This document shows positions 3,001-43,500 of a stretch of DNA of 44,335 bases, piece after piece (the first letter of the stretch is position 1; each line of letters opens with the position of its first letter). The stretch is from Basidiobolus ranarum (lineage: Eukaryota): assembly GCA_040143965.1 (NCBI GenBank), contig JASJQH010006906.1, positions 1 through 44,335 of the forward strand. Direction: 5' to 3'. The position numbers and the translations under genes were made by a program. Under the pieces are notes generated by a model, which worked only from the letters and a program-made list of their open reading frames with translations, was not told the DNA's origin and did not search any database.

Positions 3001-4567
3001 TGCAAACTGGGTTCCAGTTTTGTTAAAGCTACAACAACGGGCTTCATCTCTGGCCAGAGTTTTACAATCGATGATGTAAGGATACGGGTCGAAAGTGTTC
3101 TTCTCACAGTCCCATTTCCAAATTCTAGAAGTACCATCGTCGCTAGTGGCCAATATATACCGGTTTTCAGGAATCGGAGAAGGAGAAAATACGACATTTG
3201 TAAAGGCTTTGCGCTAAAAGAAGGGAATATATTAATCTAAAGCGCAATATAGAGCTATGAATTCAACTGTCTCGTAGACTATGATTCTTACCCCAGTCCC
3301 AGTATTACCCCGAAGTACGGCTATAGGCTCACCATTGGCCAATGCCCAAATTCTAACTACTCCATCTTGAGAGGCTGTAGCCAACATTGTATTCCCGGGA
3401 TTGATAGCAAGATCAGTAATAACGTCGAGATGACCTCTTAAAGTATATATCAAGTACCCCGTTCGAGCGCACCATATTTTGACAAGATAATCATCACTTC
3501 CCTTTGATATCGTATTTTTAGTTAGTTATAGACGAGATACGTATTTGGAGGTTTGGCTTCACCAACTTACAGTTATAACTCGCAGTCCAACTCTATCGAA
3601 AAGTACACAATAAACTGGATATTTGTGACCTTGCATTGGAACCAACTACAAAATGGAATCGTTAATAATCCACGCGCAAACAAAATTTTTCAACCTATAA
3701 AACCTCGGTGTATTGAGAGTGGAGATATCGAGCGGGCTCAGTAGGTATGCGAGGAAGGTTCTCTATTTGTCGTGTAAATACATTGACACCTAGACCCGTA
3801 GTAACATCGAGTTAATTCAAATGATGGTAATTGGCTGAAAGAAGCCAGAATATTCATACTCGAACCAAACTGGGCTAGACCAGGAAAATGCCGCCATTTG
3901 AGTTGCCTACGACGTTTGTCATTACTTCGCCACTCTGGGTTGTGAACTGACTGTTCTCGCATAACTGAACCTTCATCTTCACCAAGAACAGTATTTAACC
4001 CAGTGGTAGGTGGGGGGATTAATTTGTCAGTGTTTTTGATGTGCTTCTCTAATAGATCGTATAAAAAAGTGGGAGGGAGATGTGAATGTTTTTTTGTCTA
4101 GGTCGGAAATCGAGTAATTTAGTCAATGCTTGAAATCTATGTTTAGCAATAACTATATTCCATGTGAGGATATATGTAAATATCAACTCTACTCACCAAC
4201 TCAAAAACCGATCTTGGTCGTGGATTCCCTTTCCAGTCGTACCGGATTGGGAGGAGATCCGGCATGTTATTTATATCATCAAGTAGAGCTTTTGCGGCAT
4301 TTTGGCAAGGACCACTGGCCAAAAAACGCGCTATTAAGTAATATATCTAAAATAAGGAAACGCCAGCCATTAAGAAGTTTCTTCTAAAAAAAGACAAAGA
4401 GAACGCGTTTTACCTCTGCGTAAATGGAACAAATGGAAAGTGCGACATAAGAATATTGAGGAGGTTGTAGTATGGATGGAGAAGGTTAGGTGTTGCTGTC
4501 TTGAAGAAATGATTGAAAAAAGATTGATAATAAATTTAGACGAACCTCGAGCAAGGTTTGGGTCCAT
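1..4567 (-). CDS. PHIP/BRWD-family WD40-repeat and bromodomain protein (multi-exon, 3' end outside window)
   Basis: Spliced translation gives IYYLIARFLASGPCQNAAKALL...LLPIRYDWKGNPR (4346 downward, LisH-like PHIP N-terminus), WD40 repeats (GHKYPVYCVLFD...GSDDYLVKIW; LRGHLDVITDLAINPGNTMLATASQDGVVRIW), a YTPQTGDTIAYIIPGH segment and a bromodomain at ~200-420 (SEPFREHVNFKHYPAYLQLIPYPMCFEMVLERVSQGFYR). The long last exon runs from ~3214 off the window. The start at 4567 depends on a micro-exon model (see findings). Confidence 0.9.
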
Positions 4568-6565: not shown

Positions 6566-9500
6566 CTACATGGAAGAGGTGTAACCGAAGTTGTTACCAG
6601 TATAGCCTTGGTCTACAGAATACTGATCGATGTTATCAGGAGTCTTTCGTTCATTAATCCGTTGGGTTGTTATATATTGCCTGAGTGAAGCAAAGTTATA
6701 GTTAGTGCGCTGAGAGTACAACGTAGAATATTCTTAAACTTACAGGGACCCAGATGTATATTTACGCATGGCTTGTTTGCGCTGTTTCTCGTTCAATTTA
6801 GATTTGGGAAGAGCATCATTTTTGACAAACACAATCGTATCTATCAAGAATTGATGCTCATCAAGAAGAGCATCTACAATCAAAGGTATCATCCCAAGTG
6901 CTAGATGCTCATAGTTGGCCTGGATTTGAATGATTGCAACCACCTCCTCGTCCAATGTTTTGAAAACAATACTACACAATGCCAGTCAAGTTAGTCTCAA
7001 GTGGATAGAAGAAACATACGGTAGTAAATGGGCTTACCTTCCATCTGGAGTGATTAGTTCATGGGACTTCTCGATGGTGTTCTCTACATCAATGGGGTAA
7101 TGAGTAAGGTCATTCACATCAAAGGTGTCATCGATCGAACCAAGGACGAAGAGAAGAGGGTCATCTTCTGAGTTGTTTGGATCTGGGTACAAAAAGCCTA
7201 GATCTCCAGTACGAACATAATTCATTTGTGGATCTCCATTTTCAATATGAACCATATATCGTTCAGCGTTAACTGCGTCAGATCCACCGATACCATTGCA
7301 TTCACTAGAAACCCAAATCTCCCCAATCTCACCAGAGTAACATATCTTTCTAGTCACTGGATTCACAATCGCGACCAATGTATTCCGCGGAACCTGGAGA
7401 TAGTAAACATCAGCATGAAATGAAATGAAATAGTTAACTCAGGTCAAGTGCTAGATTAATTTACCTTGCCAGAATCATGGAGCATGATACAGAAAGGTGC
7501 ATCATTCTCTTCCAAAACAACAACCTTTCCTCTTCTCAAACTCTTGGGATCAAGGAAAAGTTGAAGAGGTTCGGATTTAAGATACGACCGAGTACTGACC
7601 ATCGGATTAGCGCTAGTTCCGTACAAAGTGACCACTGCAGAGTGCTCCAATCTATTGGCAAGGAAGGCTTTGACCACACTCTCATCTATATAAACAAAAG
7701 AAGCTATTAAAAATAGGCAACGCAAGAGGCTGACGAAATTTGCTTCCTACGTATTTCTGGACTAGGGCGGCCTTCAGATGGGATAAGAAGGTTATGAACC
7801 TGACTCAAAGAGAAGGTTTTATAATCACCGCTGCCCATATACGACATAGCGTGTTGTAACATGGGAGTTGTCGCGAATGCGTCTTTGACTGGATTTGAAG
7901 AGGATTAGCCAAATGCCGACATATTCAAAATATGAACAAACCGCTAACCTTTATACTTATACACCACCTCAAACCACACTTGAGGGTTCGAAAAGAAGTC
8001 TGGCGGGGTAATCAAAAGACTGGTACATCCTTATATCGTTAAAGAGTGAGTTGTGATGAGGTTATAGTTGCTTACATACGATAAATGAATACATACCAAC
8101 AAATATCCCCATCATGGTGGCTTGCATAAATCCAAAACCGTTGAATGTTCTAGCACAGGATATTAATGGTCGTCCTGAGATCATTTGGAAGATAGATTTT
8201 TGTAATTGGCAGTGTGAAATGACGGCATGGTGTGTGAGACGAACGGACGTGCGCTTCATATCCGGGCTCATATACGATAATATCAAGGCAGTGCTACCAG
8301 GTTGAAGCCATTGTTCTCTACCCTTAAAGCTACCATCTTGACCCAACATCTTGCTAGTTTTAGGGGCTTTAGTTGTATTGAAAATGTAAGGAAAACGAAG
8401 ATTTGGATAATAGGAGCGCAAATATGATTGAACTTGCTTCCCGCTCATCAATTCTTCGGTGACGGTATTCACTAGAATACTCTTAACCCTGAATTCTTGT
8501 ATGATTTCTACAAGTTCAATAAAATCCGCGTGTAGTCGTGTGACATCTGGTTGCGCGAGTGGAATTGGAATAAGACCACATACTAAACAAGCATGAACGG
8601 CGACGATGAAGTCCAGTCCATGAGGGAAAATCAATACTACATGATCACCAGCTTTCAATCCTCTTTTTTCAACCAAGTAATATGCTAACGAGGAGATCTT
8701 TCCGTTCAATTTTTTGAAAGTTATCGACTTGATTTCACGTCCTCTCAAGTCTAATGTAACGAACGCTCTATCTTCGGGAGTCATTGATGATCTCCAAATA
8801 AGAATATCCGTGATGTTTTGGAATTGAACTAAGTCGGTACCGGTCCGCTCATCGATCACATTATGAATGGGCTCCAGCCTTGTACATTGCGGAACCTTGG
8901 GGCTGCTTGGATTCTCCAAATTGGAATCTGTTTTTAATAAGGTATGAGATGGAAACTAAAGGGTAGAGTCAAGTAGGTTTATACATTACCGTAGGGATCA
9001 TCGCCATCCAGAGTGGGAAGAGTAGACAAGAGGTCGTTCACTGAGAATTTAAGCATGATTATTTGAAGCTTTCCATTACGGAAATGTTTTCGACAAAGTT
9101 CGGTATTAATGGTGTATTTTCCATTTCTGAGAGACCGAGGAAGTGTACTGGGAAGACATATAGCTATACAATACAGATCCAAGTGATAGAAATCCAAGAC
9201 AAATTGATGCAAACGTTCTACAAACGCGGTGTGTTGCTCTTTTGAAATGTTACTCTCCAAAACCAACACCGGCAGATTTTCTTCATTAGCATAATGATTG
9301 AAGATTGCACTATATATGAGGAATGGAACCAATAAGCCATGTGTGTAGAAGTAAATAATTGAAGAAAGCGCTTTCTTTACCAAACATCAATCGCGTCAAT
9401 GTATGTCTTGATAGTGTTGATCATGTCGGGAGTATAGTGATATTTGTACTTTACAACGCTGATTGCTCTGGTAGTAGAGCCCTCTGTGATCATCGCATCG

Positions 9501-12500
9501 TACACTTTCTGCCGAATTCTCTGCTCGTAAAGACCAAAAATAACCAGTTTTCCGTTGATTAAAGTTCCCATCAGACCTGTTCTCAAGAACTCTTGCTCAA
9601 TTGGCTTTGGGACCTCTTCGTGGCTGGAAAAATAGAGCGGCTGGGCATGGAAAATACTTCGAGTGAGTTTGGGAAGTGCCCAGAAACCACCACTTAATGC
9701 GGGTGAGTCAATCCAGACTTCACCAATGACATTGGGTGCGCATAAAATTTTAGTGTCAGGATCGACAATCGCTACCGTAGCTATAAAGAAAGAAATGTTA
9801 AGCTAATACGACGATTCAAGAGTATAGGTAAAATAAATACATTGAGGCATGGCATAGCCGAATGGCTCTACCCACAAAGTATCTTTTGGATCCCATCTAG
9901 AGAAATTCTCCTGGCAAGTATCAAGAATCTTCATGGAATTTCCTCTTAACGCATCTCGCTCAATTAAGCAATTCCACGTTTCTCTTTCTCTTTCGTCTGC
10001 TACACTAACTTGTGGAATTGGGTTTTTCGGTAAATAATCACGGAAACTTAAGATCATGCCACCATGTTCAGGCAAGCTGCACATAGGAGTAATAACTTGT
10101 TGTGGGTACCGACAACCAAATGGAGTCAAGAGGTACTCGGCAATCTCCATATTGAAATATGGATCAATATTAAAGGTGTCGATCAGCAACAAACGAAGGC
10201 TCGAGAATTCAAACTCTTGCTTTTTGTTGTAACTTAAAGAGTTGTCATTTTCTTTTCGGAAGGAGGATATGACAGTGGCAAGGCCTGTATAATCGGATAC
10301 ACCAATGGTGGCTACAAAGGAATCAGAGTATTTTAGCAAGGCAGTACTATCAAGAAGATAGGCTCAATAAACCAATCACTAACCTCGGTATCTAGTCATA
10401 CAACCCATCCATAACCCAGGGATTTCAAGAGCAGTACTACTGCTAATACAAACCGTATAATTGCCACAGTATACACCAATAAAAGCGGTAAGAATAAGAC
10501 CAACTTGCATTCTTGGCTCAATGGCATTTACTAGTACGTCTCCCGAACTTCTAGATGCCGCTTTGAATGCTGCACACTGGGCCATAATCGTCATATGGCT
10601 AATTCCCACACCTTTTAACTCGCCATTGGGACTCTTCGAATACTCAATATAAGCTAAATCGGTTGGTTCAACAGCAGAATTTTGCTCATTATAGTTCTGT
10701 TTACGGTTGAGACTTCCTAAATCATTGGTTTTAATCCACTCTAGAGAAGTGGGCCATTCATCACGATGATTTTGAAGATCTCGAGTCAAAGCTTTAATGT
10801 TAAGCTCAGTAGACAAGACTAAAGCAGTTCTAGTGGTTTTTAGAATAAACACTACTTCGGCAAGACTATCGGTGTTCACAATCGGAACCGCAACAGCCCC
10901 AATGAAAAAGCAAGCAAACAATGCTGAAATGAAATCCAGATATTCCGATTTACGATAAACTAACCCAATTCTATCTCCTTTACGAACATCAGATTTGCCT
11001 CTAAGAAGTTGGGCAATCTTTTCAGCTCTTCCCACAAGTTTATCCCATGAGTAAGCGCCAATATCTTTGCCTTTACCGTCCAATACACTATACGCAACGT
11101 TTCGAGGAGTGTGGGCAGCTCGAAAGCGCAAAACACTTGGGAGAGTGGTAAAATTTTCGAGAGAAACGTTAGACTCGCCGTCATATAGAGTGAAGGGAAT
11201 TGGTCTGGGCATAGAAGGAAGCACTGGTATATCATGAGATTCGTCTCTTTCATTGATGGAGTCGGATCTTAGCGACTGGCTCTCCGTCTCGACGTTATCG
11301 TATTCGCGTCTCTCTGCATATAACAATGCAATGGTTTTTTAGTTAAGAAACTTCAACAACATTAAAAATTTAGAATACTACACACCATCCGAGTGTAAGT
11401 TAGTTTGTCCTAGTCTTTCATTCAAAGAGGATATGCCATCATCGGAAGGATAGTTTTTGGTCATAGGGGCGACTGGGGGATATGTGCTACTTGGAGTACT
11501 TTGTCCATAGGCCCCTGTGGGTGCTTCAATACTTTGATTCAAAGAAACAGGTGAATCAGTCCTATCAAAATATCCAATGTTCTGAGGAGCTCCAGGGTTA
11601 TTCGGTAAAAAATTAGGATTGTATGGCTGAGTGGAATATCCAGGATTTGAATTGTCTGATTGGGCGGATATTTGGGAAAGTCGATGGATATCCAAACCAC
11701 CTGTGGGTGATCTTCCCAGGTTGTAGGAAGTTGGTGATATCGGAGATGTAGGGTTCGAAGGTGATTGAAGAGTGTCACTATGGTGAGAATACCTCGACCC
11801 TGAGCTATATCGTTGATCAGAGGGGTGTGGGTACCCGGGTGTGGTCTGGTGAGGAATTATATTGACTTGGATTCTTCCTCTATCAGTGTCGGTCTCCACT
11901 CTGGGAGGAGCAGCCAAGCGAGCATTATAAGGTAAAGCATTAGTAGGAGGTTGGGGATGGTTATATTGTGCTTTTCCTATGTTTGGGTCGTATTCATAGG
12001 ATCCATAATTGTTATAGGGTGAGTACGGTGTAGAATAGGAGGGGTATTGTTGATTTTCTGCATTGGTGTCTGCTGGATATGGGTAACTATCGTTTCTAGA
12101 TAACTGATAGTCAGGGACACTAGTCATATCATTACTTGTTCGTACACCTGCAGTTTGAGGATACTGCTGAGGATACTGTTGGGGAGGAGGAGCATGAGTG
12201 TAGGGATACTGTTGAGGATAGTGATGCTGGAAATTTTGTGCTCCAGCTGAAGTTCGACCACCGGAATTAGCTGGGGGTAATTGACTACCACCAGAATAAC
12301 TTGGATGAGCTTGAATATCATAAGGTCTTCCAATATCCCGATTAGAAGTTGAACTAGATATAGAGTTTCCGGAGAGTCGCACACGTTGATAATCCAAAAG
12401 AATCTGGTTCCTTTTTTTATGGTAACCCTTTTGTGTTATATCACCATCTGCAAGCTCCCGCTCTAATTGAGCTAGTTGATGACGTATTGGAGCAGGAAAC

Positions 12501-12529
12501 TCTGGCGAGCCTCTGTTATCGAGTTCCAT
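6566..12529 (-). CDS. DIP2: DIP2/Cmr2/Cps1-family protein: DMAP1-binding domain plus tandem FAAL-like AMP-binding domains
   Basis: N-terminal LAQLERELADGDITQKGYHKKR (DMAP-binding signature), adenylation-like domain 1 (DLAYIEYSKSPNGELKGV; FLRTGLMG) and domain 2 (GEIGEIWV, YVRTGDLGFL, HYPIDVENTIE). About 11 exons, all joined in frame by GT-AG; last exon ends YTSSM* at 6566. Confidence 0.93.
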
Positions 12530-13438
12530 TATTAGCCCAAACCTAAGTTCGCTTTACCCTGAAATCAAGGAAACTGTAAATAATGATTAGCACCTCTACA
12601 CTTTTAAAAACAAATGACAATTGTCACTACAAACAAGTCGGGCAATAGAATAAAGTATAACGCGTTCAGAATACTTGTATATATATTCTCGCTATCTCGA
12701 ATTGGGAAACGAGACAAGATTATTTAGTGAGAGGAGGTGGAATGTTATGCGTACCTTTATAAACTCAATTGCAAGGAATCTGTGTTTTCCAGACGAAGAA
12801 GTAGGTCAGGATTTAATACAATACTAATAGCTAATTCACGAAAATATTAGTCCCTATGGTGATAGGTTGATGCAATACAAATTGCAAGGCTGATTGCCAA
12901 TAGTGCCTTACATTACGGAAACCACACTAATCGTAGAAACAACGATACATACAATGTTATGCCAAGTATTCCACAAATTGCTTAAAATAACATGAAGCAG
13001 GCCACAGCCAAATATGTAATTTGAAAAACCAGTATTTTCCGGCGGGTTATGTTACCCCCAAATACATAAACCAAGTGAGAAGTCACTGAACACAGGTGTA
13101 AATTAAATGTGGATGTGCATTGTCTTTGATTTATCCAAAACATAGCTAAACACATGTACTTCGAATCCACACACATCAGGTTTAGGGTGTTAACTCATCC
13201 ATCTTTTTTACACATCTTTTACATATTATCTGAAAGCATTAATGATCATTTTGGGATGATTTACTGAAATACACCATTATCCATATAATTCTGATGACAG
13301 CTGAATTTAATATTTGTACGTGTTGTATTAGGAAACCAATTTATTGTGATCGACTAGGATATGCAACGAGACAGATTAGATTTCGCGTTTGTTTTTTAGC
13401 TAATACCTATTTTCTTCTGAACCAAAGTCAATAGTAAA

Positions 13439-17538: not shown

Positions 17539-20500
17539 ATGCAAGGGTTTGAAAACCATTTACGTACGGCCGCTACCCAGTTTTCCAATGGAGACTTGAA
17601 GGTACATCAATACATCCTGCCACCACACTTTTCTTCAAGCTCAACGTGTATTCCCTTTTATATTAATGACGTGAAATAGGAGGCGTATTTGAGCTACCTT
17701 TTTGCTGCGCAATCTTTATTGAGTAAATTATCGACAGAAGTGGTTTTTGAAGACAAGAGTAAGTTGACTCTGAATGTTTTCTTTATGTTCATTTTAAACT
17801 AAACTGTCCTGTTTTAAAGGCAGAATTAGTTCCCAGCCCGAATATATACAAAGTCTTTTTTCTATATCAACGAAATGTTTACGGTCAGCTGAGGACATCG
17901 TACGCAATCGGTGTGTTTACTCTCCTTCAACACATCCCTTGATTGAAGAAGAGGAAAAAGATGGCGATATTACGGATACTCCTATATCTGCTTCACCCAA
18001 TATTGTTACTGTCGAGGCTACACTTCCATTGATTCCCTTGTCTCCTTTAACTCAAATGTCAATAATTCATTCAAGCTCCTTAGCATCTGCGAGTCAAAAG
18101 TTAACGCTCGCCAAACGTTCCAAGACTCCTGTTGGATTACCTACTCTAAGAAGATTAACAGAGGATGTTCGTATTCAGCGTGGAAAATTAGATTCCATCA
18201 ACAAACAAATCAAGTCAGTTGCTGATGTAGTGATTTCGAGTTGGAATCCGGATGCCTTAGCAAAGCAATTAACTATAATTGAAGCGCAACTTTTCTCCAA
18301 ACTATCTATCAAAGGTGATTTTCTTTCCGCTAAACCACGTACGACTAAGATTCAAGGATGTCTCGATTTCCATCGGTATATTACGAATAGTATCACTCAT
18401 CAGATAATTGCTGGTTCAGAGGTCAGTAATTCTGCGACTCGTGAACATCCTAGAGACTATATAATCGCTCATGTTATTCGAGCCGCTTATTTGCTGCTGC
18501 ATGTTTACCGAAATTTCAGTGGGTTCGCTGCTATCATTAAGGCTCTAACAAGCCCTGAAGTCAGACGTTTAAGAAAGTCCTGGAAAAAGGTGCCCAGTAA
18601 AACGAAAGAAATGCTGAAAGATCTTAGTAGACATATCAAAGAAGAAAACAAGTTTCGCTCGTATCATGATGCTTTATCTTATAAACTTGGAGAAACCAAG
18701 GAGTTCGGCCCTGGATTGGTGGCTATTCCGTGGATAGAAAGACACCTGGAAAAGTTGGAGGCAGTGCTAAAATCGTATTCCACAGGACGAAAATCCGATG
18801 CAAACAAGTTCGATCCAAGTGTATATCTTTCCGAGCCAGGGGCACGCAAGTTAGAAACAATCTTGTTTACTCTGGAGCAATGCCAAGGAAACCCTTCAGA
18901 AGATCAATTTACAGTAGAAAGACAGAAAACTCCCAGAAGAAGAACTTTCATGGAAATTGATGGTGCAAAGTCACAAATTGCATTGCCATCCAATCTTTTA
19001 GATATTGGTGGAACTGATCTTGCTCTTCATCATTGGCTTGTGTCTCGTGTTTACCTAACAAGGTACCAGCTTTGGGAGGAGAGTTTGGAATACGAATCGC
19101 CGGCATTTGGCGAGCTTGTCCCTACCTTTGTCAAAGAAAATGGCCAAACTCTGATTGAATCCCATCACATGGGTCACCATACAGATACCCCTCACTTCGA
19201 AGACGTGGGGCAATTCAACGACTATTTCCCATCTGAAGGAGACCATCCTCCTATGGATCTGGATAGAATGGAATCTGTAGACGAGTTCTTATCGTTTTTA
19301 GATCAAGATTTGATCGAGTCCTCCACTCCCAATACAGTTCTTCCTAGCGCAAAAGACTATCAATACAACAACCCCTGGGATGAAGGTGACCATACTCCAA
19401 GCCCAACGATAGCCCAGACCCCAAATAGTCATCAGCCCTCTGTTGAGAGAGTATTCGAGGAAACTTCTCCAATCATGTCAGGTTCGGCAGCTGACTCTGA
19501 AATTCTAAGGCGGTTTAAATCGGATCTCCCTGGTCATCGAAATGGTATCCTCTTCAACTCGGTCAAGCCTTCCTCGGCGTTCAACAATGTCTTTGGAGGT
19601 AATTATTTCTTGAAGCCGAGATTTGGATAACGTACAACTCGACTAACATTATTTTTAATTAGATGATTACGATAGCTCATGCAACTCCAGTCCTTTGCCC
19701 TCCAATAGACGCTCAATATTTATCCCTGATGTTGATCCTCTAACTAAAGATTCTAATGAAATTGCTGCCGCTGCCTCCATTCCTACAAATGGAGTGCAAG
19801 CCGATTCTCAGCAATCCCCATCGGGTTCATTGAGTGAACATTCAGATAGTCAGCACTCCGATGCTGAAGAGGACCAGAGCAACGTAGAAGTTGAGAGTGG
19901 TGATCATAAGTTGCTAGATACGGGGGACACGCAAGAGTTCCTCTCGACCTTGTATTTTTCTACTGTTGATATGAATCACGAGAATAATGATCTCGATGAG
20001 TCCTCAGCTTTAGAAAGTATGCACGGCAATCGAGAAGTGCCGGCAATCCAACCTTCCAAAGGCGACAATGATCCGATCTCCCCCAACGGAGTTGACGAGC
20101 ATCATCACCCTTCTGATACTCCAGAGAGCGAACAACTTGAGTCGCTTGGCGAACTAAATGAACCAATATCAACCGAGAAAACAATAGAAGATATCAACGA
20201 ACTCAATGCCACTCCACCGAGTCGGCAACTCGACACTGAACAGGACATATATACAGCAGTCGAATCAGAGGTAAATGAAGATGTGAGCTTCGACGAAGGC
20301 GATACAAAACAAGAGATTTCAAATGCTCAAGATGAAACCCTTGAATTCATCAAAGATAGTAGCTACGATCCTGTAGACGCACCTCAAGAATTGGACCGCA
20401 CAAGCGAGTTGAATGTTGATCCATTGACGAGTAGCTTGCCAGACACTCCTTTTAGTCAAAAGGAAGCGGCCTTGGTTGTACCTGACTTCCAGGAGGATGG

Positions 20501-20765
20501 TGATAATAGTTCTGAAGAGGAGCCTAGAAAATTTCTATCTTTGGAGAAATTGATTCGATTAAATGAACTTGACTATGTTGAGGAGAAGAGTGATGGTGAC
20601 ACTTCCATCACAATCAGCGACGATGAGGCTGGTACTGATACGAAACAAGCAACTGAATACAAGCAGGACTATCGCAAGCCGAATGGTAGAACTGGACCCG
20701 ATTACAATAGCGATGATAGTATTAAAATGAACAACTCCGATCACAACGACAATCCAGATTCTTGA
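17539..20765 (+). CDS. RasGEF (CDC25-like) domain protein with small helical N-terminal domain and long acidic tail
   Basis: Exons MQGFENHLRTAATQFSNGDLK / EAYLSYL... lead into ORF 17939-19630 with RasGEF motifs (LAKQLTIIE, YRNFSGFAAIIKALTSPEVRRLRKSW, AIPW). One intron then leads to the D/E/S-rich ORF 19695-20765. Confidence 0.8.
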
Positions 20766-21070: not shown

Positions 21071-22580
21071 TCAACCTCCTAAATGGATTGACAAGCTAGC
21101 ACGTACATCATTAGGATTAAGTTTACTACGAACATTAAATCCCACTCCAATAGCGACCGATACAGCTGGTATTGTACGACTAGTCCCTATGCCAAATAAC
21201 AAGTCAACATCGCCGTTTGAGGTAACGCGAAGCTTGACTGCAGAGCGATTGCTTAGTTGCCATGCACCCCCCACACGTAACACACTCTCAGGAATTGTTG
21301 GCTCTGAATGAATATTTTGATTGATAACACGCTCGAATTCGCCGGCTAGAGTGACTGCTCTTCCGTAATAGAGTACCTTATGTAAATAACCGCCCACTAT
21401 ACGGGATTGTCCATCAGTAGAGAGGACATCCAAGGCCGATACACTGATTTTATATTGATTTGGCTATCGTAGATCAATATTTACCATGAGAAGTCAACGA
21501 GGTTAATATGCAAAGAGCAAAAAATCAACTTGAAGAAAATTGACATTACCATCTCTGAACCGCTTAAATTGTTAAAAACATCACTAGTGTATACTCCAAC
21601 TAAATCGATTTTTTGAAGGGCCAAAAGGGGTTCAATTGCCAACGTAGAGGGATTCCTAAATTTATTTAGAAATTCTTCTCTAGTATGGAGTCGACAACCA
21701 AGTTGTATTTTTTGATTTCTATAAACAATCCAACCACCCATCTTCCTTTTGAGGGGGTTATAAGACGTCTCCATAGTGAAATTCTGGGTTTTAAGGCCGC
21801 CAGCTATTTCCAAATCATAGATGTCAATGGGTTTTTCTTTGGTGAAAGCTTGCTCCGTTTTTCCTCGTAAAGCTAAGTAATTCTTATGTGTTGCAAGATC
21901 ACCATAACTACCCAGAATTAGTGTAAAGACCAAAAGTTAGTTGTCACACAGTATATTATTTAAACAAAGGGTATGCAATTTACCTTAATATGAAAGATTG
22001 AACACTGTTGGTACTGAGGAATAATCTTAATGCAGTCAAACCATCGCCCACACTAAACGTAATAGAGAGCAAACGTATTGGTTACGTGTAGAAAAGCAAA
22101 GATTTAAAAACAGTGAAATAACCATATGTAAGATTTCCCTGAACTACGTGTAGCCTCATTGAAATACTTCACTCCAACCTCCTACGATACAGATGAAGAA
22201 AAGAATATACTTTCAACTAAAGTTCTATTTACGTAGAAAATACAGAATATTCCCACCACTCCCGGCTCAGGGTTTAGTGAAAATGCAATACTGGTATCGT
22301 TGTAGTTACTGTGTAGACATCTCTTGATTTCCTTTGTTAATAGTTCGAAGCTATTTAGGTATCTAACACACAATAGTTGTTATCCCACTTGTTTGCCTAC
22401 CCAAAGTATGTAAGGGTCAAGTTACCTTGTTTTAGGTATTGGGAAAACGGGGAAATCAAAAATAGGATTTATCATACTAGAGGTGTTTTAATGCAACAAG
22501 CAAATAGCCTAATTTCCCCATATATTTGACATCTACAAGCATAAGCTATATCGTCACCTCTTCGACTTCAAATCAGCCAT
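21071..22580 (-). CDS. Predicted beta-barrel membrane protein, eukaryotic porin (VDAC/Tom40/Mdm10) superfamily, OM47-like
   Basis: Exons splice to MADLKSKS-MINPIFDFPVFPIPKTR-YLNSFELLTKEIKRCLHSNY...; the remainder is runs of alternating hydrophobic/polar residues (IDIYDLEIAGG, GGWIVYR, IDLVGVYT, VTLAGEF, LRVGGAWQL, AVKLRVT, VSVAIGVGFNV, VRASLSIHLGG*) with no long hydrophobic helix. The start is 22580 or 22475. Confidence 0.65.
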
Positions 22581-23456
22581 CAAAGTCCCCCCCCCTTTTT
22601 AATATTGCAATTGATTGGCCGCCTAAGCAACGACCAGCTTTACTGCAAAATGATTAACAAACACCATGCACTCCGACTGTAAATTAAAGCACCACAATTC
22701 CACAGAGGTCTTGCAACATCTCTGTACACTTCTAAGCCGTGACATTTAACCTCACCTAAAAAGAAGTATCTTCAGCCATCGAGAACCCTAGCTCTGATGA
22801 GCAACCTGGCGGCACTTGCTCGCAACTCCTCCTAACATCAGGTCAAACTTGGTAATGGTATTAGGGAGGATTGATTTACACAGCTTATCGATCAAAATTC
22901 AGGCTGAAGATAACTGATAACAGAGCATGATAAACCCTTATCTCGATTCTTATCTTACTCCCATCACTCAGTAGCAATCACATGAAAGCAACTTGTCTAA
23001 CCGATCAACAAGCTAGCAAGCTTGACAGGCGATATACCATGTTTTAAGTTACTAAGGCTATTGGTTACATGTCACTACCTGTCATTAATAATGACATATT
23101 ACGCCAATTAAGGAAATGTGCACTATAACCTCCACTTGAAATAACCGAGAGCAGAGCCAATCATTCGCTAGGAATGGGCTATTTCCTGAATTGACCCTTG
23201 ACCCACTAATTTGATAAACCGTTAAAATGTTGATTGGTAAAAGACTACCCAGTCCTAATACAGATCGCACGCAATAGCCAAGAAGCGAAAGTCCAATTTG
23301 GCATGCGATATGTTGTTTTGGGCAATGATGGTGCAAGTGAAAGTTTATCCGACAGGAAGTGATTCTAAAAAGAAAGCCCAACAACGGTAAAAGTTGATTA
23401 TTATGTTGGTTTTATTCAATCCAATTTCATGTAGTACCCGCATGCACCAATCTAGT

Positions 23457-23787: not shown

Positions 23788-25144
23788 ATGGTTAGCGACA
23801 GCTTCACTCAACACTTCCAAAACAACACCACACAGTTCAAGCAACTCAGACCTCTTAATAGTGGTGATATTAAGATTCTTTTGCTTGAGAATGTGAACAC
23901 AGCTGCCGTAGAAATGCTTACCAAACAGGGTTACCAGGTATGACATAGAGTATTTCACACAGTCCTTCATTTATTCTAAATATTGATTTCTACACTAGGT
24001 CGAACATCACACCAAAGCTTTGCCCGAGGACGTGTTAATAGAGAAGATTCGCGATGTCAGTGCTATTGGTATCAGAAGCAAGACAAAACTCAGCGCTCGC
24101 GTTCTCAAGGAAGCCAAAGAGCTTCTCCTAATTGGTTGTTTCTGCATTGGTACCAACCAAGTTGACCTTGAGGTTGCCACTAAGCAAGGAATCGCCGTAT
24201 TCAATTCTCCTTTTAGTAATAGTCGCAGTGTTGCCGAGATGGTCATCTCCAACATCATCAGTTTGGCCCGACAATTCGGAGACCGTAACAAAGAAATGCA
24301 CCAAGGTATCTGGAATAAGGTTTCTGCCAATTGCTATGAAATCAGAGGAAAGAAGCTTGGTATTATTGGTTACGGTCACATCGGATCTCAGCTTAGTGTA
24401 TTAGCAGAATCCATGGGTATGCAAGTAATTTTCTATGACGTTCTTCAACTGATGCCCCTTGGTACCGCAAGAACCTGCAGCTCCCTTGAGGAGCTTTTGG
24501 AGAGTGCCGACTTTGTTACCCTTCACGTTCCAGAGACCCCAGAAACCAAGAACATGATTAGCAAACAACAACTAGCTAGAATGCGCAAGGGTTCTTATTT
24601 GATTAATGCTAGTCGTGGAACTGTTGTAGATATTCCTGAATTGGCTGCTGCTTTGAAGTCTGGCCATTTGGCTGGTGCCGCTGTCGACGTATATCCTCAG
24701 GAGCCTCGTGCTAATGGAGATGGTTTTGTCAACGAACTTCAAGGTTGTCCCAATACTATCCTTACCCCTCATATTGGTGGATCTACCGAGGAAGCCCAAT
24801 CCATGATTGGTGTTGAAGTTGCCACTGCTATCATCAAGTACGTGAATTATGGTACCAGTCTTGGTGCAGTTAACTTCCCCCAAGTCGACCTCCGTGCTAT
24901 CCGTGCAAATGAATCCAAGACCATCCGTGTCATCCATACCCATCACAATGTTCCAGGTGTATTGAAGGAGGTCAATAACATTTTGTCTAATCACAATGTG
25001 GAGAAACAAATTTGTGATTCTACTGGGGACATTGCTTATCTTATGGCTGATCTAACGATTAGCGAAGGTGAGGAAGATTTGCACAAGCTTTACGAAAGAG
25101 TTGCTGCTACTCCTGAAACCATTATGACTCGTGTGTTATATTAA
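23788..25144 (+). CDS. SER3: D-3-phosphoglycerate dehydrogenase (one intron, ~23938-23998)
   Basis: KILLLENVN, GIRSKTKL, FCIGTNQVDL, NSPFSNSRSVAE, GIIGYGHIGSQL, INASRG, LTPHIGGSTEEAQ; C-terminal ACT domain (HHNVPGVL). Confidence 0.97.
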
Positions 25145-28336: not shown

Positions 28337-30175
28337 CTAGTTAGTTTCACATATCAACTCAATTAGCCTGTCAATCCTAGAAAGTCTGGCTTCAAACTGA
28401 GGCAACATATGATTTCCGAATGCATTGAATGTATCTTGAGTCCATAGACGCTCGCTCATGGCACCCAGCCTACCTTTTAAGCAGTGAATTTCTTTTTCGA
28501 CTTCAGATTCCCACACTACAATACTGGCACCGTGTACTCGAGGTCCTCTTGAGTAGGGTGCTCCAGCTTCCTTAGGCAAAGTGACCCATTTTGTCTTCCT
28601 TCCTCGTTCAGGGATGCCTCCGAATTCACAACTCCCTTGCCACTTGAGAATATCTTTGACGGAGGAGCCATCGGTTCCTACCACGTATAAGGGTGACCAC
28701 GCTCCATTGATGATGCTGTAGCCGTCTCGGATCAAGTGATCTGGTTGGTAATCTTGCATTGACCAGGTCATGATCAAGATATCCTTTGGTGGGAGTGGGG
28801 TCGAATGTGCAGCAAAGGATTCCCAAACGATGGACCTTCTGGTGGGTTGATAGAAACCAAGATCGGCTGGAATGTTGGATCCGGGTAAGGTCGGAGGAGA
28901 GTAACACGAGTGAATGTTAAGATTTCTAACATGGTAATTCATGAAGCCCATGAAATCCCATAGTAATTCCTTATCTGAGGAAATGTGATGTTTTCTATTA
29001 ATAGCTCTCTGAAAATGGGGATCTTCATCAGCATCAGTCACATCAACCTCGTCGAAGCCAATATGTATATATGGAGAGTAGGGGAACAGTTTGGCTACAT
29101 GGCTCAACATGGGCAGAATCACACAGTTTAGCACCGTTTCATTGGCGAAGTTGACTACTGAGCGTATACGATCCTGGCCATCATTACTGTATGTGCCCAA
29201 GAGCTCAGGTGAGGACCGAATGAGGGCTTCAGAGTGGCCAGGAATATCGAACTCTGGCACCAAGATGACTCCACGTGTAAATGCGTACAAATTCAGGTCT
29301 TTCAATTCTTGAATGGTATAGGCTGGCTCACCATGCACGTTATGAATGGCTTTCCCGATTTCTGATAAATCCACCCCATTATAGAATTCCGGACTGGGCG
29401 AAGGGATCATGAAGTTCTCGTTATCGGTCAAATGCAAATGCAAATATCGAAGCTTATACAAACTGCACAGATCGATAATGGATTGTAGATGCTCAATTGA
29501 ATGGTACTCTCGTGCCACATCCAACATCAATCCACGATATTCGTCAGGTGTCGATGGCCAATCTTCAACGATGATATTTGGCCATATAAATTCGTTTGGA
29601 GTGCGCTCCTCCAATAGTTGAACGAGGGTACTGACTGCGTATGCGGCTCCTTCGGGGTTTTGAACATCTATGGTAACTTGCCGTTGTTGAGCATCAATGA
29701 CAACCCTGTACCTACCATCCATAGAAGCATCTCCAAATCTTTGTAGATTAAAACTAACATTTACGATATTGCTTTGGGGATTTCCCCCTCCAAGAAATTC
29801 ATTCGTGACCACTATTCTCTCTTCCCCGGCATTTAATATCCGTTGTAACCATGCTTTCAACACCAAAGCGTTCCCCAAGAGCCAACTAGAGTTACAATTA
29901 ATTTCTACGCTAACCTCTCCTAGTGATATCAGAGCGACGTGGTCATGTTTCGTTTCATTTTTGGGGGTTGGAATCACCTGAAATTGATGCTCTAATGTCA
30001 AGCCCGGTCTTGGTGGAACTACTGGAGGAGCATTTTCACAAGGGTACTGTTGAGGTGTGTCATATCTTGAGCCAGGTGGTGTTTGTGAGTTCCCGGAGTC
30101 TTCTTCACCCAAAACATCCTTAGCCTTGTATAAAGCTTTCTTAAAAAAAGTGCTAGTTTTCTGTAGAAAAGGCAT
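28337..30175 (-). CDS. Glycoside hydrolase family 20 beta-N-acetylhexosaminidase (intronless, no signal peptide evident)
   Basis: GH20b-like domain, then YRGLMLDVAR, LHLHLTD, VPEFDIPGH, catalytic HIGFDEV, VVWESE and AMSERLW. Confidence 0.92.
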   Translation of the reverse strand: MPFLQKTSTFFKKALYKAKDVLGEEDSGNSQTPPGSRYDTPQQYPCENAPPVVPPRPGLTLEHQFQVIPTPKNETKHDHVALISLGEVSVEINCNSSWLLGNALVLKAWLQRILNAGEERIVVTNEFLGGGNPQSNIVNVSFNLQRFGDASMDGRYRVVIDAQQRQVTIDVQNPEGAAYAVSTLVQLLEERTPNEFIWPNIIVEDWPSTPDEYRGLMLDVAREYHSIEHLQSIIDLCSLYKLRYLHLHLTDNENFMIPSPSPEFYNGVDLSEIGKAIHNVHGEPAYTIQELKDLNLYAFTRGVILVPEFDIPGHSEALIRSSPELLGTYSNDGQDRIRSVVNFANETVLNCVILPMLSHVAKLFPYSPYIHIGFDEVDVTDADEDPHFQRAINRKHHISSDKELLWDFMGFMNYHVRNLNIHSCYSPPTLPGSNIPADLGFYQPTRRSIVWESFAAHSTPLPPKDILIMTWSMQDYQPDHLIRDGYSIINGAWSPLYVVGTDGSSVKDILKWQGSCEFGGIPERGRKTKWVTLPKEAGAPYSRGPRVHGASIVVWESEVEKEIHCLKGRLGAMSERLWTQDTFNAFGNHMLPQFEARLSRIDRLIELICETN

Positions 30176-30552
30176 AGTTACATGCGACTATGGGTAACCC
30201 ACTCCACTTTTATACTCATTGGTGATTGCATGGGAAATCGGAGGACAATACACCACTGAGCACGGCAATCGGAATCAATAAATAGCAATTTTTAAAGTAG
30301 CAATATGTTAGTGGAATATACAAGTAAATTATCGTAACATAATGACTCTTTTATATCCAGCGCCTCTTGGCGTTGTATTATGGCTAGATCAGAATTACAA
30401 TGTTTATCCATTTTAGCGCTTTTTATTGGTTAAGATAAAAGAAGTTGGGGATGTATGATTCATTAGGTATTTGGCTATAATAATTGAAATACCGCTAGAA
30501 ATACAACTAGAAATACAGCTTGCGAAACACTGATTTAATCACGATCACTGGT

Positions 30553-30947: not shown

Positions 30948-31631
30948 TTATCGATTTAGGGGTAATAATTCAGAGCCAAGAGGCGGATAACAAATAGAGT
31001 ATCCATTGGAATAAGGATGGCGGCTGTATACATTGGAATAAGGATGGTGGTTAGAATTTCTTGTGATATCACAATAGTTGGATTTCCAAGAATTTAAGAA
31101 GGGTAGATCTACTGTATCCAAGTAGGTGATTTCTTGATGGTGTACAAATTGCTCTACATAAAGCAACCATTGAGAGAACTCTTCTTCCGACATATGTAAA
31201 TCATATTTAATTGAACGGAGAAATTCCACTTCCATTTGGTTAAGCTCCTCCACTGGGATAAAGGTTATGTCGGACCAGGTTTGGTTTGTATATGTGGAAT
31301 CTTCCAACATCTTATGAGATATCATTAAAGAAATCACGAATAGTCGGCATTCAGATCCCTCTTCCCCACGAATTCCGGGACAATACTTCGTTAATCGTTG
31401 TATGTATTTTAAACCGAGAAAAATGACCGATGGACTCGCTTCACTACGCGTTATCACTCCTTTATAGAAATCTCGAAACATTAAGTTAGGTGTCTCCAGT
31501 CTTATATTGGGCTGATAATGCCACATTTGATGTACCATATAACCAGCAAAATTTGACAGCAGAGGGATGTTTTGATTTGAAAATTGGGATAGTAGCGGAT
31601 ATTTAACCGACAACCAAGTTTGTGGCATCAT
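30948..31631 (-). CDS. Pho80/Pcl-family cyclin (intronless)
   Basis: Cyclin box: LGLKYIQRL...SECRLFVISLMISHKMLEDSTYTNQTWS...ELNQMEVEFLRSIKYDL. Confidence 0.9.
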   Translation of the reverse strand: MMPQTWLSVKYPLLSQFSNQNIPLLSNFAGYMVHQMWHYQPNIRLETPNLMFRDFYKGVITRSEASPSVIFLGLKYIQRLTKYCPGIRGEEGSECRLFVISLMISHKMLEDSTYTNQTWSDITFIPVEELNQMEVEFLRSIKYDLHMSEEEFSQWLLYVEQFVHHQEITYLDTVDLPFLNSWKSNYCDITRNSNHHPYSNVYSRHPYSNGYSICYPPLGSELLPLNR

Positions 31632-32369: not shown

Positions 32370-32623
32370 TTACTAATCATTACTAATTCTTCTTCCTATG
32401 AAATTGAAACGTACCTTTCACTTTATGCAAAATCACATCAATTCTTGACTAATCTACTTCTACAATTTCATAAATTTAATATCCAATGAAAAGTCTGAAA
32501 TTAATAAGCTGGAGATCATTTTTTCTATGAAAAATGAATAGTGTATATTAGTCAGCAATACTGATTAGTAAGCAAATGGAAACACGATGATTTTTTTCTG
32601 CACACTTTGGCTTGGTATAAATA
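32370..32623. promoter_or_regulatory. Cluster of Yap1/AP-1-like response elements and TATA box upstream of the OYE gene
   Basis: TTACTAA 32370-32376 and 32380-32386, TGACTAA 32446-32452, TTAGTCA 32548-32554, TTAGTAA 32565-32571; TATAAATA 32616-32623. Confidence 0.6.
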
Positions 32624-32683
32624 GTCAGTGATTCTTACCAATGGTATTTATCATTTCAAGACATAAATCTCCGATATCACAAA

Positions 32684-33862
32684 ATGACTGTTGCTCAAAA
32701 CATTTCTTCTCAGTTTGTTCAGCAAGCTAAACCAGCTCCTGGTGCCGTGATGCCCACTCATCAAGGTGAAATTCCGGGCCTATTCAAACCTTTAACTATA
32801 CGTGATGTGACTTTGAAGAATCGCATTGCTGTACCACCCATGTGCACCTATACCGCTGAAGATGGCTTTATGAATGATTTCCATCTTGTACATATTGGCC
32901 AATATGCCAATTATGGTGTTGGTTTAATCATTGTAGAAGCTACTGCAGTGCTCCCTAATGGTAGAATAACTCCTAATTGTCTCGGCTTATGGAAAGACGA
33001 ACACATGGTTCAAATGAAGAGGGTCGTAGACTACATCCATGGTGCCGGATCTATTGCTGGTATACAGATTGGCCACGCAGGTCGTAAGGCATCCACTCCA
33101 CCACCATTCATCGTTAAGAAATCTGACAGAGAAACCCTCACAGATGCACAAGGTGGCTGGGGAGATATCTGGGCTCCATCTCCCATTAGCTGGGATGAAG
33201 GTTGGGCAGTGCCTCATGAGATCTCTTTAAGTGATATTGCCACCGTCAAACAAGCATTTGTCGACGCAGCCGTTCGTGCTAACCAGGTTGGATATGATGT
33301 ACTCGAAATCCATGGTGCTCATGGTTACTTGATCAGCGAGTTCCTCTCCCCCATTAGTAACCAACGTACTGATGATTATGGAGGTAGCTTTGAAAATCGC
33401 GTACGACTTGCTGTTGAGATAGTTCAAGCAATTCGTCAAGTCTGGCCAGCCGAAAAACCTCTATTCTTCCGTATCTCTGCCTTCGAATGGGTTGAAGGGG
33501 GATGGTCAGCTGAAGATACTATCGAGTTTGCCAAAATAATTTACCCTCTTGGTGTTGATCTATTAGATTGCTCTACAGGTGGCAACGTTTCCACACAAAA
33601 GATCGCCGCTAAGCCCGGGTTCCAAGTAACATATGCTGAACAGGTCAAACATCAAGTTCCAGGATTGTTAACCGGAGCAGTTGGTTTGATTACTGAAGCT
33701 CACCAGGCCAATGAGATTGTTGAAAAGGATGAAGCTGACTTGGTACTCATAGGAAGAGAGCTCCTACGTAATCCTACTTGGGCGTTGCAAGCGGCTCTAG
33801 ACTTAGGGGTTGATGTTAACTGGCCTGCACAGTACGGCTATTGCTCTAAACCTCGTAAATGA
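32684..33862 (+). CDS. NADH:flavin oxidoreductase / Old Yellow Enzyme, YqjM-like class (intronless)
   Basis: LKNRIAVPPMCTY, EATAV..GRI, QIGHAGRK, EIHGAHGYL..FLSP.SNQRTDDYGGSFENR, GRELLRNP.W, WPAQY. Confidence 0.95.
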   Translation: MTVAQNISSQFVQQAKPAPGAVMPTHQGEIPGLFKPLTIRDVTLKNRIAVPPMCTYTAEDGFMNDFHLVHIGQYANYGVGLIIVEATAVLPNGRITPNCLGLWKDEHMVQMKRVVDYIHGAGSIAGIQIGHAGRKASTPPPFIVKKSDRETLTDAQGGWGDIWAPSPISWDEGWAVPHEISLSDIATVKQAFVDAAVRANQVGYDVLEIHGAHGYLISEFLSPISNQRTDDYGGSFENRVRLAVEIVQAIRQVWPAEKPLFFRISAFEWVEGGWSAEDTIEFAKIIYPLGVDLLDCSTGGNVSTQKIAAKPGFQVTYAEQVKHQVPGLLTGAVGLITEAHQANEIVEKDEADLVLIGRELLRNPTWALQAALDLGVDVNWPAQYGYCSKPRK

Positions 33863-40569: not shown

Positions 40570-43500
40570 ATGGAATCGCATCCTTACAAACATATTAATT
40601 CAACAAACACCGATTCAGACGACGACAGTATCCATCAACGTACTCCAACCAGAGCTTCATTAAAATCTGAGTCAGTGATTTCCAACAAGAAAGGAATCAA
40701 CCAACATTCAGAAAGCAAACACAAAACAAGTACTCGTATTGATATTTCCAAAGACAAGAACCGTTCCGAAAATACTGGGTAATTTTTTAGGAAATCTTTT
40801 TTCAAATATCCCTTTCTTTTGGAATTATTTGGGAAATTTGTTAGTCAATATTCACTTCTTTCTCATCTCATTGGGTTTTTTTGAAGGCAAATCACTTCCA
40901 GTGCTAGGTTTAGGAAACAATTAAAAGAGAAAACAAAGTTCATTGTTTCACCTAAAGAGATTGAAAATCTCGAAGTAAAAATGTATTTCTTGGATCAACT
41001 ACATTTATTTCAAATTCTTTCACTAACTTTTGTTTTTACTTCTATATCTGTATGTATAGAAACTCTCGTCCGGAAAAAACGAAGAAATCATCCAATATCC
41101 CACGTAACAGAGAGGACTTGTTTAGCGATAAAACAAATATAGAGACATCGAGAAAGAGAAAGAGTAATTACACTTCACATAATTTTAGGGAAACTTTTTC
41201 GGAAATCAAGAAATCTCGTCAAGATATGCAGAATCAAGAGAGGTATATCTTATTTCGTTTTTGAGTTGTTTGCTTTCGTAATTGAGTAATACTTATTTCT
41301 TTGTAGCGAGGGTAGTAAAAGACAATCGGATAAAGTCACAGAAACTAAATCTGAGAATGATAAATCAAATTCATCCAAACGATCCAGTCTTAGTGCCCCA
41401 GAAAGTAATAAGCAACGCTCGAGTTCACCGGTGATCGACTCCAATGTTGTTGATAATCCTGAGTTAGCCATGTATGGTGATCTTTCTGATGGATTGGATA
41501 TCGAAGAAACCTCAGGAAACGAATACGGAGACTATCCTGAGGAGGGCTTCGACGATCTTCATGAAGAAGGGATGGAGTTTGATGAAGCCGATGATTTCGA
41601 TGATCTTGATGAGCATGATGAAGAGGATGAGGAAGATGATGATGACGAAGATGACTACGAAGATGAGGAGCTCACAGGGACTGGCGAGTTCGAAAGCTCG
41701 TTCAGTGGACTAGCCGGACTTCGTGGCCTTGGTGGTATCATGAGCGGAGGTTTGTTATATTATCAGAAGTGTAGTTTTTCAAACTCTGGAAAACCATGCT
41801 AATATCATTTCGATTCAATAGTTTCAGCAAGATTGAAGTCAATTCTTGGCCACTTGAGATGTTATCAAGAGCCTTCCATTCAGCTTATTGCATTACAAGA
41901 GCTCGCTGAAATCCTCTCTGTAGCTACAGAAGACACTCTAACTGGCTATTTTTCTTGCGACCCATTCGTCAAAGAGTTGGTAAATCTTATGAAGGGAAGT
42001 GAATTTAGCTTTGGCGAAGAGAGCCCTGAAATTATGCTTCTGGCATGCCGTTGTTTATCCAATTTAATGGAAGCTTTACCAAGTGCGGTTGGCAGTGTTG
42101 TATATAATGGTGCTATTCCCGTCCTCTGCTCTAAACTTATGGAGATTCAGTACATTGATCTAGCGGAGCAAGCCTTAAGTACCTTGGAAAAAATTTCTGC
42201 TGAATACCCGACTTCGGTTGTTCGAGAGGGTGGATTACTTGCAGTGCTTATGTATCTCGATTTCTTCTCTACCAATGTCCAGCGTACAGCAGTAACAACA
42301 GCTGCAAACTGCTCTCGAAACGTACCCAATGAATGTTTCGACATGATAAAAGAAGTGGTTCCTATCCTTGAGCGTTTGCTTTCTTACTCTGACCAAAAGG
42401 TTGTAGATCAAGCTTGCTTAGCCTTGGTTCGTCTTGTCGAAAGCTTCAAGTACAATACTGAGCATTTGGAGTCCATTGTTTCGAAGGATTTGGCTCAAAA
42501 CATTCTCAATCTCATATCCTCTTCCACAACCAGCGTAGTCAGCCCATATCTTTACACCCAGCTTTTGACTCTTCTACGTCATTCTGCTAAAGGATCATCC
42601 AAACTTGCATTCGAACTATTGGGCAATAATATTGTTGAAATCTTGTACCAAGTTTTAACTGGTAGCGTTTATAGCAAGAGTGAGCCAAATCATCTAGGAG
42701 ACGACTCAGTAGCCCTCACCAAGTTAGTTAATCGTCCTGGCGATCAAGTTTGGGAGGCCCTGGGTGTGGCAATTGAATTGCTACCACCCTTACCGAAAGA
42801 TGGAGTGTTCACATCAGAGAACAATAATCCCGATATTACCAAGACTAGTTCTGATTCTGACCCCGATTTGCGCACGGATCTTTTGAAGAAAAATCCAGCA
42901 GTAATGGCCAAATTTACTGAAGTACTTCTGCCCACATTCATAGAAGTATTTTCTTCTACTGTTGTCACCCAAGTACGTCTTCGTGTAGTAGCAGCTTTGC
43001 TCAAAACTGTCTTTTACGCGGATGTCGAAGTTTTAACGAATATCCTAAAAAGCGTACCTTTTGCTGGGTTTGTCGCGGCTATCCTTTCTCGTCAAGATCA
43101 CCCGATGTTAGTGGTAGGAGCTGTTCAGCTTGCTGAATTGCTCATGGCTAAATTACCTGACCTATATCATTTGTTATTCTATCGCGAAGGTGTCATGAAT
43201 GAGATCTTAAAGCTTTCGGATAATACCAACGTTCCAGAATCACCAAATGAGACATCGGAACATTCGATGCCAGAAGAAAAGCTCGATGAATTATTTGGAG
43301 AGTCGAGCAAATCCAACAAGGATGAAGATGGCAAATTGAAGGAGTCAAATGAAGACAATGAACATTTGGATTCAAACCATAAAGAAGCGGAGTGTTCTAC
43401 ATCAGATGCCCCACAAAATCCACGTACACCGGTAAAAGATTCCAAGACCTCCAGTGAGTTCGAAAGGACTCCATCTGCAGGAATGAGACTGATTGAAAAG

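Follow-up and report, generated by a model that had tools for sequence, protein, structure and literature searches.

We analysed a 44,335-nucleotide (nt) window of the Basidiobolus ranarum genome (contig JASJQH010006906.1, positions 1 to 44,335) and identified in the product of one of its minus-strand genes, K7432_001394, a probable member of the eukaryotic porin superfamily (Porin_3; the VDAC/Tom40/Mdm10 class). The protein, P0001, is annotated as hypothetical. It appears to be highly divergent, restricted in lineage and distinct from canonical VDAC and canonical Tom40, an assignment that we rate somewhat above even; at the least, it is a strongly divergent variant of a known protein class. 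The family has so far been seen in two Basidiobolus species and in one metagenomic protein, P0006. An earlier, sequence-only reading of this DNA had called a eukaryotic (mitochondrial) barrel of the porin superfamily at this locus, and that call is borne out by a profile link to Porin_3, an hhalign probability of 98.35%, structural superpositions in the ESM Atlas with template-modelling (TM) scores of 0.71-0.73, and the first nine ranks of a Foldseek search.

The gene occupies positions 22475..21071 of the minus strand. Its six exons, obtained after alternative splice donors had been tried, join into a coding sequence (CDS) of 1035 nt, stop codon included, and the joined translation is identical at every residue to the 344 amino acids (aa) of the database protein P0001. 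In the deposited model, translation starts in the exon at 22426..22475, which encodes MINPIFDFPVFPIPKT and ends in phase 2. It is followed by exon 2 (22257..22362), which holds a predicted N-terminal helix, exon 3 (22123..22181) and exon 4 (21984..22052), each of which splices into P0001. Exon 5 (21550..21907) encodes residues 96-214 and includes, by spliced translation and alignment, a MGGW..V.....LGC hairpin common to P0006. The last exon (21071..21463) encodes residues 215-344 and the stop codon. The five introns measure 63, 75, 70, 76 and 86 nt, are bounded by GT..AG in all five cases, and have a GC content of 29-40%, against 39.9% in the CDS.

A candidate extra first exon of 23 nt, proposed by the sequence-only reading, lies upstream on the same strand at 22558..22580 (an ATG plus 20 nt, MADLKSK-). 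Together with an 81-nt GT..AG intron (22477-22557) it stays in frame, and it would add eight residues to give a protein of 352 aa. This exon is absent from the deposited model of P0001 and from that of the B. meristosporus protein P0002, both of which begin MIN-. Six exons are certain and a seventh is possible, so that the protein would be 344-352 aa long. The earlier description of seven exons and about 370 aa therefore placed the gene correctly and holds for six exons, with the seventh possible, but overstated the length. The peptides quoted with it, NPIFDFP, RYLNSFELL, KRCL..NY and VGGAWQLSNRSAVKLRV, are all present in P0001. Just beyond the optional ATG at 22580, and 7 bases upstream of it, is a run of nine C at 22587-22595 (nine G on the gene strand).

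B. meristosporus carries an orthologue, P0002 (337 aa), that is 68-69% identical to P0001 over its full length and across all exons. The N-terminal segment MIN(P/S)IFDFPVFP is kept in both proteins, and the last exon alone, used as a query, retrieves P0001 and P0002. Given a full-length orthologue at this level of identity, the gene is real and conserved within the genus, and not a chance chain of open reading frames (ORFs).

Similarity to known porins is concentrated near the C-terminus. Residues 233-325 (21131..21409, minus strand) resemble positions 183-261 of the 271-position Porin_3 profile (PF01459) by Pfam. The direct Pfam scores are 16.2 bits for the last exon (E 0.007) and 14.5 bits for the whole protein (E 0.024), both below the gathering cut-off of 28.4 bits. 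We then built a two-sequence profile from P0001 and P0002 and compared it by exhaustive hmmsearch with 1.84e9 representative proteins at E <= 1e-3. Seven matches were returned: P0002, P0003, P0004, P0005, P0006, P0007 and P0008. Two of these were set aside as probable repeat-driven false matches and kept out of all alignments, namely P0003 (aRib repeats, matched in 22 stretches) and P0007 (CARDB and similar, matched in 6 stretches).

The only member of the P0001 family recovered outside Basidiobolus in this search was P0006, a metagenomic protein of 241 aa from a single contig. It corresponds to residues 129-324 of P0001 at 24% identity (BLASTP E 4e-12), its hmmsearch match spans residues 128-322, and it shares with the Basidiobolus proteins the motifs MGGW...GC, VGGY.H, R.VTL.G and LRVGG.W; it has no Pfam match of its own. 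The remaining matches, P0004, P0005 and P0008, are metagenomic fragments, and all three match Porin_3, with P0005 (39.8 bits) and P0008 (32.8 bits) above the cut-off and P0004 (18.9 bits) below it. The Basidiobolus profile reached P0005 with an E-value of 3.0e-4 and P0008 with an E-value of 4.6e-4 in the library of 1.84e9 proteins. When the alignment of P0001, P0002 and P0006 was compared by hhalign with that of P0008, P0005 and P0004, the two were joined with 98.35% probability and an E-value of 1.1e-14 over 94 C-terminal columns. Through this link to Porin_3-positive fragments, a remote homology of P0001 to the eukaryotic porin superfamily is well supported at the level of sequence profiles, over a C-terminal stretch of roughly five or six strands.

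Other sequence searches added little. Word-indexed homologue searches with the last exon (against longer proteins) and with full-length P0001 returned P0001 and P0002 only, and the same search with a six-sequence alignment returned P0001, P0002 and P0008 only. Against the sequences of the Protein Data Bank (PDB), profiles A1, A2 and A4 of the family matched no porin-family chain at E <= 10: A1 matched no chain, A2 an unrelated ribosomal protein only, and the sole matches across these profiles were an unrelated mitoribosomal protein (E 0.18) and LIN-41 (E 0.68). The fragments P0004, P0005 and P0008 likewise matched no VDAC or Tom40 sequence in the PDB at E <= 10. An NCBIfam search of P0001 gave nothing relevant, and scans of metagenome loci confirmed no relative, with 182 pattern matches for profile A3 and 93 for P0006. 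The C-terminal fragment P0004 (116 aa; cluster members P0009 and P0010) itself recurs in metagenomes, on 25 contigs that reach 51 kb in length, and has the appearance of a final exon from a porin-superfamily gene of some eukaryote that is common there. A scan of viral contigs for P0004 gave 5 pattern matches, among which none was found to carry it.

Measured against VDAC and Tom40, P0001 is alike in the alignment of residues ~233-325 to Porin_3 positions 183-261, and in its layout, which has a predicted helix at the N-terminus, then a long series of strands, and no transmembrane helix. It differs in a Porin_3 score (14.5-16.2 bits) that is about half of the 28.4-bit cut-off, and, from VDAC in particular, in a barrel part of ~310 residues against the 281-294 residues of the VDAC chains in the PDB entries found by Foldseek. 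A canonical VDAC (Por1) or Tom40 was considered as an identity for P0001 and is unlikely, with Porin_3 below threshold and no VDAC or Tom40 sequence of the PDB matched at E <= 10. The sequence-only reading had set the protein apart from Por1, Tom40 and Mdm10; the sub-threshold Porin_3 score agrees with it for canonical Por1 and Tom40, while Mdm10, whose own profile PF12519 is also unmatched, remains a rival that we take up below.

Predicted structures point to the same superfamily. The ESM Atlas model of the exact P0001 sequence has a predicted TM-score (pTM) of 0.72 and a mean predicted local distance difference test (pLDDT) of 0.69, and 27 of its 30 nearest feature-neighbour clusters lie within the Porin_3 set, with one further neighbour being an Mdm10 cluster. 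By structural superposition, the model aligned with a ciliate porin cluster at a TM-score of 0.73 (270 residues), with an apicomplexan cluster at 0.72, with an Ascomycota Mdm10 cluster at 0.71 (286 residues) and, more weakly, with a Streptophyta cluster without a Pfam family at 0.57. In an Atlas search with the fragment P0008, the Porin_3 set accounted for 29 of the 30 feature neighbours, with Chlorophyta, Ciliophora and Streptophyta clusters first; these neighbours give no indication of the fragment's subfamily.

An AlphaFold model built from the six-sequence alignment led to a similar result. When it was compared with the PDB by Foldseek, ranks 1-9 were all VDAC or TOM-complex entries (TOM, translocase of the outer membrane), with E-values from 5.9e-5 to 4.4e-4. 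The last ~115 residues are the best-predicted part of this model, with pLDDT values of 64-87. Secondary structure assigned by DSSP to the model, which is of low confidence overall, comprises a helix at residues 20-34 and, from residue 78 to residue 343, 16 strands; three further strands could lie within residues 36-77. VIA-align, a comparison independent of Foldseek, listed 50 matches, and all 50 are transmembrane beta-barrels, with Z-scores of 9-12.4 across all kinds of large transmembrane barrels. Zebrafish VDAC2 scored 12.1 and a yeast TOM-complex entry 11.8, with bacterial OccK and TonB-dependent receptors scoring equally; since the Z-scores are tied across kinds of barrel, VIA-align carries no subfamily signal. 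The predicted fold class, a barrel type, is clear, but VIA-align, the Atlas and Foldseek do not single out a subfamily.

Simple sequence properties are consistent with such a fold. The highest 19-residue Kyte-Doolittle mean is 1.37, in keeping with the earlier remark that the protein has no transmembrane helix. P0001 has 28 windows in which the beta-amphipathic moment is high; shuffled sequences have 11.0 +/- 6.6, and 9 of 500 shuffles reach 28. This enrichment is modest. The beta-rich character that had been read from the translation is upheld by the 16 strands of the low-confidence AlphaFold model together with this modest enrichment.

The tie with bacterial barrels bears on a different explanation, in which P0001 would be some other beta-rich protein, for example of the Omp85/Sam50 type or a bacterially derived outer-membrane protein. 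Consistent with this, the Z-scores of P0001 to SusC, OccK and TonB-dependent receptors equal those to mitochondrial barrels, its direct Porin_3 score is below the cut-off, and its UniRef entry is called 'Bacterial surface antigen (D15) domain-containing protein'. That label, however, looks like an automatic mis-assignment to another class of barrel, since Pfam lists neither an Omp85/D15 nor a POTRA family for the protein at E <= 10; there is no NCBIfam match either. The gene has five spliceosomal introns, and the seven matches of the exhaustive search include no prokaryotic homologue, save for the two repeat proteins with short, multi-copy matches. With the 98.35% hhalign link to Porin_3-positive fragments and the nine best Foldseek matches all being VDAC or TOM-complex entries, we regard an origin outside the porin superfamily as very improbable.

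Several observations weigh against the assignment of P0001 to a divergent porin-superfamily lineage, or limit how far it reaches. Sequence similarity to Porin_3 is confined to about the last 95 residues, and none is detectable in the N-terminal two thirds. The AlphaFold models are weak, with a mean pLDDT of 31.0 from two sequences and of 50.7 (pTM 0.41) from six, which we attribute to the shallow alignment; in the six-sequence model the N-terminal 190 residues are mostly below a pLDDT of 50. The 16 strands resolved at a pLDDT of 50.7 fall short of demonstrating a closed barrel or 19 strands, and TM-scores between this model and PDB porins in Foldseek are low, at 0.20-0.45. The VIA-align Z-scores (11-12.4) fail to separate mitochondrial from bacterial barrels. 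At the C-terminus, the last predicted strand contains a motif resembling the beta-signal, RASLSIHL (residues 335-342; 21080..21103, minus strand), which fits the consensus polar-x-G-x-x-hydrophobic-x-hydrophobic except for a Ser at the Gly position. Its counterpart in P0002 is RVSLSIHL, and the Gly is kept at that position in P0006 (RLGGEFVV) and in P0004 (RLGAIFTM). Finally, the genomic evidence covers this one window of 44,335 nt, and an additional lineage beside ordinary Por1, Tom40 and Mdm10 genes in Basidiobolus is a possibility only.

The last point is of most consequence for Mdm10, a barrel that anchors ERMES (the encounter structure between endoplasmic reticulum and mitochondria) and associates with SAM (sorting and assembly machinery). 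Among the fungal members of the porin superfamily Mdm10 varies the most, and P0001 might be no more than a fast-evolving Basidiobolus Mdm10 orthologue, an ordinary fungal gene missed by profile models. In Pereira & Lupas 2018 (PMC6193526), Mdm10 appears as the third porin-superfamily barrel known in fungi, which fits such an identity, and P0001 shares with it the superfamily and a fungal distribution. The Atlas alignment to the Ascomycota Mdm10 cluster covers 286 residues at a TM-score of 0.71, a chytrid Mdm10 cluster comes 26th among the feature neighbours, with a score of 0.93, and the length of 344 aa is near the 362 aa of that cluster's representative. Yeast Mdm10 is also among the top tied rows of VIA-align (7btx_L, Z 12.3, root-mean-square deviation 8.2, 237 residues aligned; 7bty_L, Z 12.0).

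These likenesses are, however, not particular to Mdm10. The TM-score of 0.71 stands beside 0.73 and 0.72 for the ciliate porin and apicomplexan clusters, the 30 Atlas feature neighbours include only one Mdm10 cluster while 27 belong to the Porin_3 set, and the VIA-align Z-scores for Mdm10 are tied with those for bacterial barrels and thus hold no subfamily information. Unlike Mdm10, P0001 has no match to the Pfam family MDM10 (PF12519), which is unlisted at E <= 10 for P0001, P0002 and P0006, a negative to be read with the fact that the HMMER filters discard most matches above E ~0.1; by comparison, 73% of the members of the chytrid cluster carry PF12519. Nor is the yeast Mdm10 sequence in the PDB matched by profiles of the P0001 family at E <= 10. 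We hold a drifted Mdm10 to be unlikely, although it is a serious contender. Conserved surface residues reported for yeast Mdm10 are Y73/Y75, G144 and Y296/F298/Y301 (PMC5476798). Our literature searches found no work joining Basidiobolus with Mdm10, and those joining Basidiobolus with ERMES gave unrelated work only. Were P0001 an Mdm10 after all, it would show how far this protein can drift beyond current profile models, which matters for surveys of ERMES distribution.

The sequence-only reading had favoured another identity, in which P0001 is the fungal orthologue of the plant protein OM47 (At3g27930), belonging to an ancient VDAC-related lineage kept in early-diverging fungi and acting as a metabolite channel. 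It pointed to an N-terminal likeness of the form P-I/L-F-D-F-P, which we treat as presumed only; the Basidiobolus version, NP/SIFDFPVFP, is conserved between P0001 and P0002, and N-termini are missing from the metagenomic relatives. It also took a C-terminal strand pair, 'VGGAWQ...K.R...', as a mark of OM47. That second feature is not specific to OM47. The motif sits in the segment matched by the general Porin_3 profile (positions 183-261), and VGGAWQ-type pairs recur in the Porin_3-positive fragments as GGLWQIS..LLKGR, GGSWQVS..LIKAK and GGKWQIA..FLKAK; for these two reasons the pair marks the superfamily and not OM47.

OM47 itself is described, in PMC5100019, as a Porin3-superfamily barrel with 18 predicted strands over residues 33-371. 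It complements the deletion of VDAC in yeast and makes up a separate clade adjacent to VDAC. Compared by description with this account, P0001 is similarly a divergent barrel of the Porin3 superfamily, distinct from both VDAC and Tom40, and its layout is compatible: an N-terminal segment of ~30 residues precedes a barrel that exceeds VDAC's in length, with a comparable arrangement of strands. Since P0004, P0005 and P0008 match no VDAC or Tom40 sequence in the PDB, a separate lineage that includes these fragments is possible, and the Streptophyta cluster without a Pfam family, not identified as OM47, is a structural neighbour at a TM-score of 0.57.

This cluster is nevertheless weaker structurally than the ciliate (0.73), apicomplexan (0.72) and Mdm10 (0.71) clusters. 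At E <= 1e-3, none of the seven matches of the exhaustive profile search is a named plant protein, and four of them are unnamed metagenomic proteins. PMC5100019 calls OM47 plant-specific, which sets it apart from the fungal P0001; the function of OM47 is described through complementation of yeast VDAC and leaf senescence, whereas P0001 is known from sequence. Our literature search found no OM47 outside plants, and the published work that treats OM47 with VDAC concerned plants only. A kinship of P0001 with OM47 is not supported so far, and we consider orthology distinctly improbable.

The papers considered name VDAC, Tom40, Mdm10 and Sam50, together with the lineage-specific ATOM, TAC40, OM47 and MBOMP30. 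In fungi, no mitochondrial barrels are known other than Por1/Por2, Tom40, Mdm10 and Sam50. A broader proposal is that P0001, P0002 and P0006, possibly with P0004, P0005 and P0008 and perhaps with OM47, represent an undescribed subfamily of the mitochondria-only barrels that is older than fungi and patchily retained, so that Basidiobolus would have a barrel beyond Por1, Tom40, Mdm10 and Sam50. We think this improbable on present evidence. Precedents of a general kind exist: PMC6193526 describes a 19-stranded, mitochondria-only family with five subfamilies, TOM40, VDAC, MDM10, ATOM and TAC40, of which ATOM and TAC40 are lineage-specific barrels of trypanosomes, and MBOMP30 of Entamoeba is a further mitochondrial or mitosomal barrel (PMC4339806). 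Like TAC40, ATOM and MBOMP30, P0001 is a taxon-restricted and highly divergent barrel, though these come from unrelated taxa, are set beside it by description and serve as precedents only. In the literature searched (supplements aside), we found no published description of P0001 or of a fungal OM47, and no mention of the accessions.

Returning to the reading that we prefer, a divergent porin-superfamily barrel, a working model can be sketched. In eukaryotes that lack plastids, as fungi do, the outer membrane of mitochondria is the only known site of transmembrane beta-barrels, and P0001 should therefore be a barrel of the mitochondrial outer membrane, a location suggested by its family. We speculate that P0001, once synthesised in the cytosol, is taken up through TOM, and that SAM would then insert it into the outer membrane by means of the beta-signal-like motif of the last strand. 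There it may form a large barrel, probably of 19 strands, with the N-terminal helix associated with the pore. This helix (residues 20-34, NSFELLTKEIKRCLH; 22311-22355, minus strand) is predicted to be amphipathic, lies in the conserved N-terminal segment and appears in both AlphaFold runs, with low confidence. VDAC and Tom40 have pore-associated N-terminal helices, and the predicted helix of P0001 parallels them. In function, P0001 would most probably be an accessory channel for solutes or metabolites, like VDAC and as reported for OM47; a scaffold resembling Mdm10 is an alternative role.

The interest of P0001 depends on whether it represents an extra lineage or an Mdm10 that has drifted. As a further divergent barrel in an early-diverging fungus, it would bear on the diversification of the mitochondrial barrel class, on the set of metabolites that can pass the outer membrane without VDAC, and on whether OM47-like channels predate plants.

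The genes surrounding K7432_001394 are unrelated eukaryotic genes, and this context is silent on function. On the plus strand, an ORF with a RasGEF domain (17798-19630) is followed by a 368-codon acidic ORF rich in Ser, Asp and Glu (19659-20765) that has no Pfam match, the two being probably one gene. This gene (17798-20765) converges on that of P0001, with 305 bp between the stop codons. Beyond the 5' end of the P0001 gene lies an ORF for a D-2-hydroxyacid dehydrogenase (23999-25144, plus strand). Further away are a protein with WD40 repeats and a bromodomain (1-3213, minus), a GH20 hexosaminidase (28337-30187, minus), a Pho80-type cyclin (30948-31631, minus), a flavin oxidoreductase of the Old Yellow Enzyme type (32621-33862, plus) and the N-terminus of a TRIP12-like E3 ligase (41803-44334, plus). 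Lastly, within 8062-12553 of the minus strand, two AMP-binding ORFs (8062-8955 and 10379-11338) adjoin a DMAP1-binding ORF (11378-12553) on the same strand, an arrangement that we take to resemble the DIP2-type architecture of a DMAP1-binding domain with tandem adenylate-forming domains.

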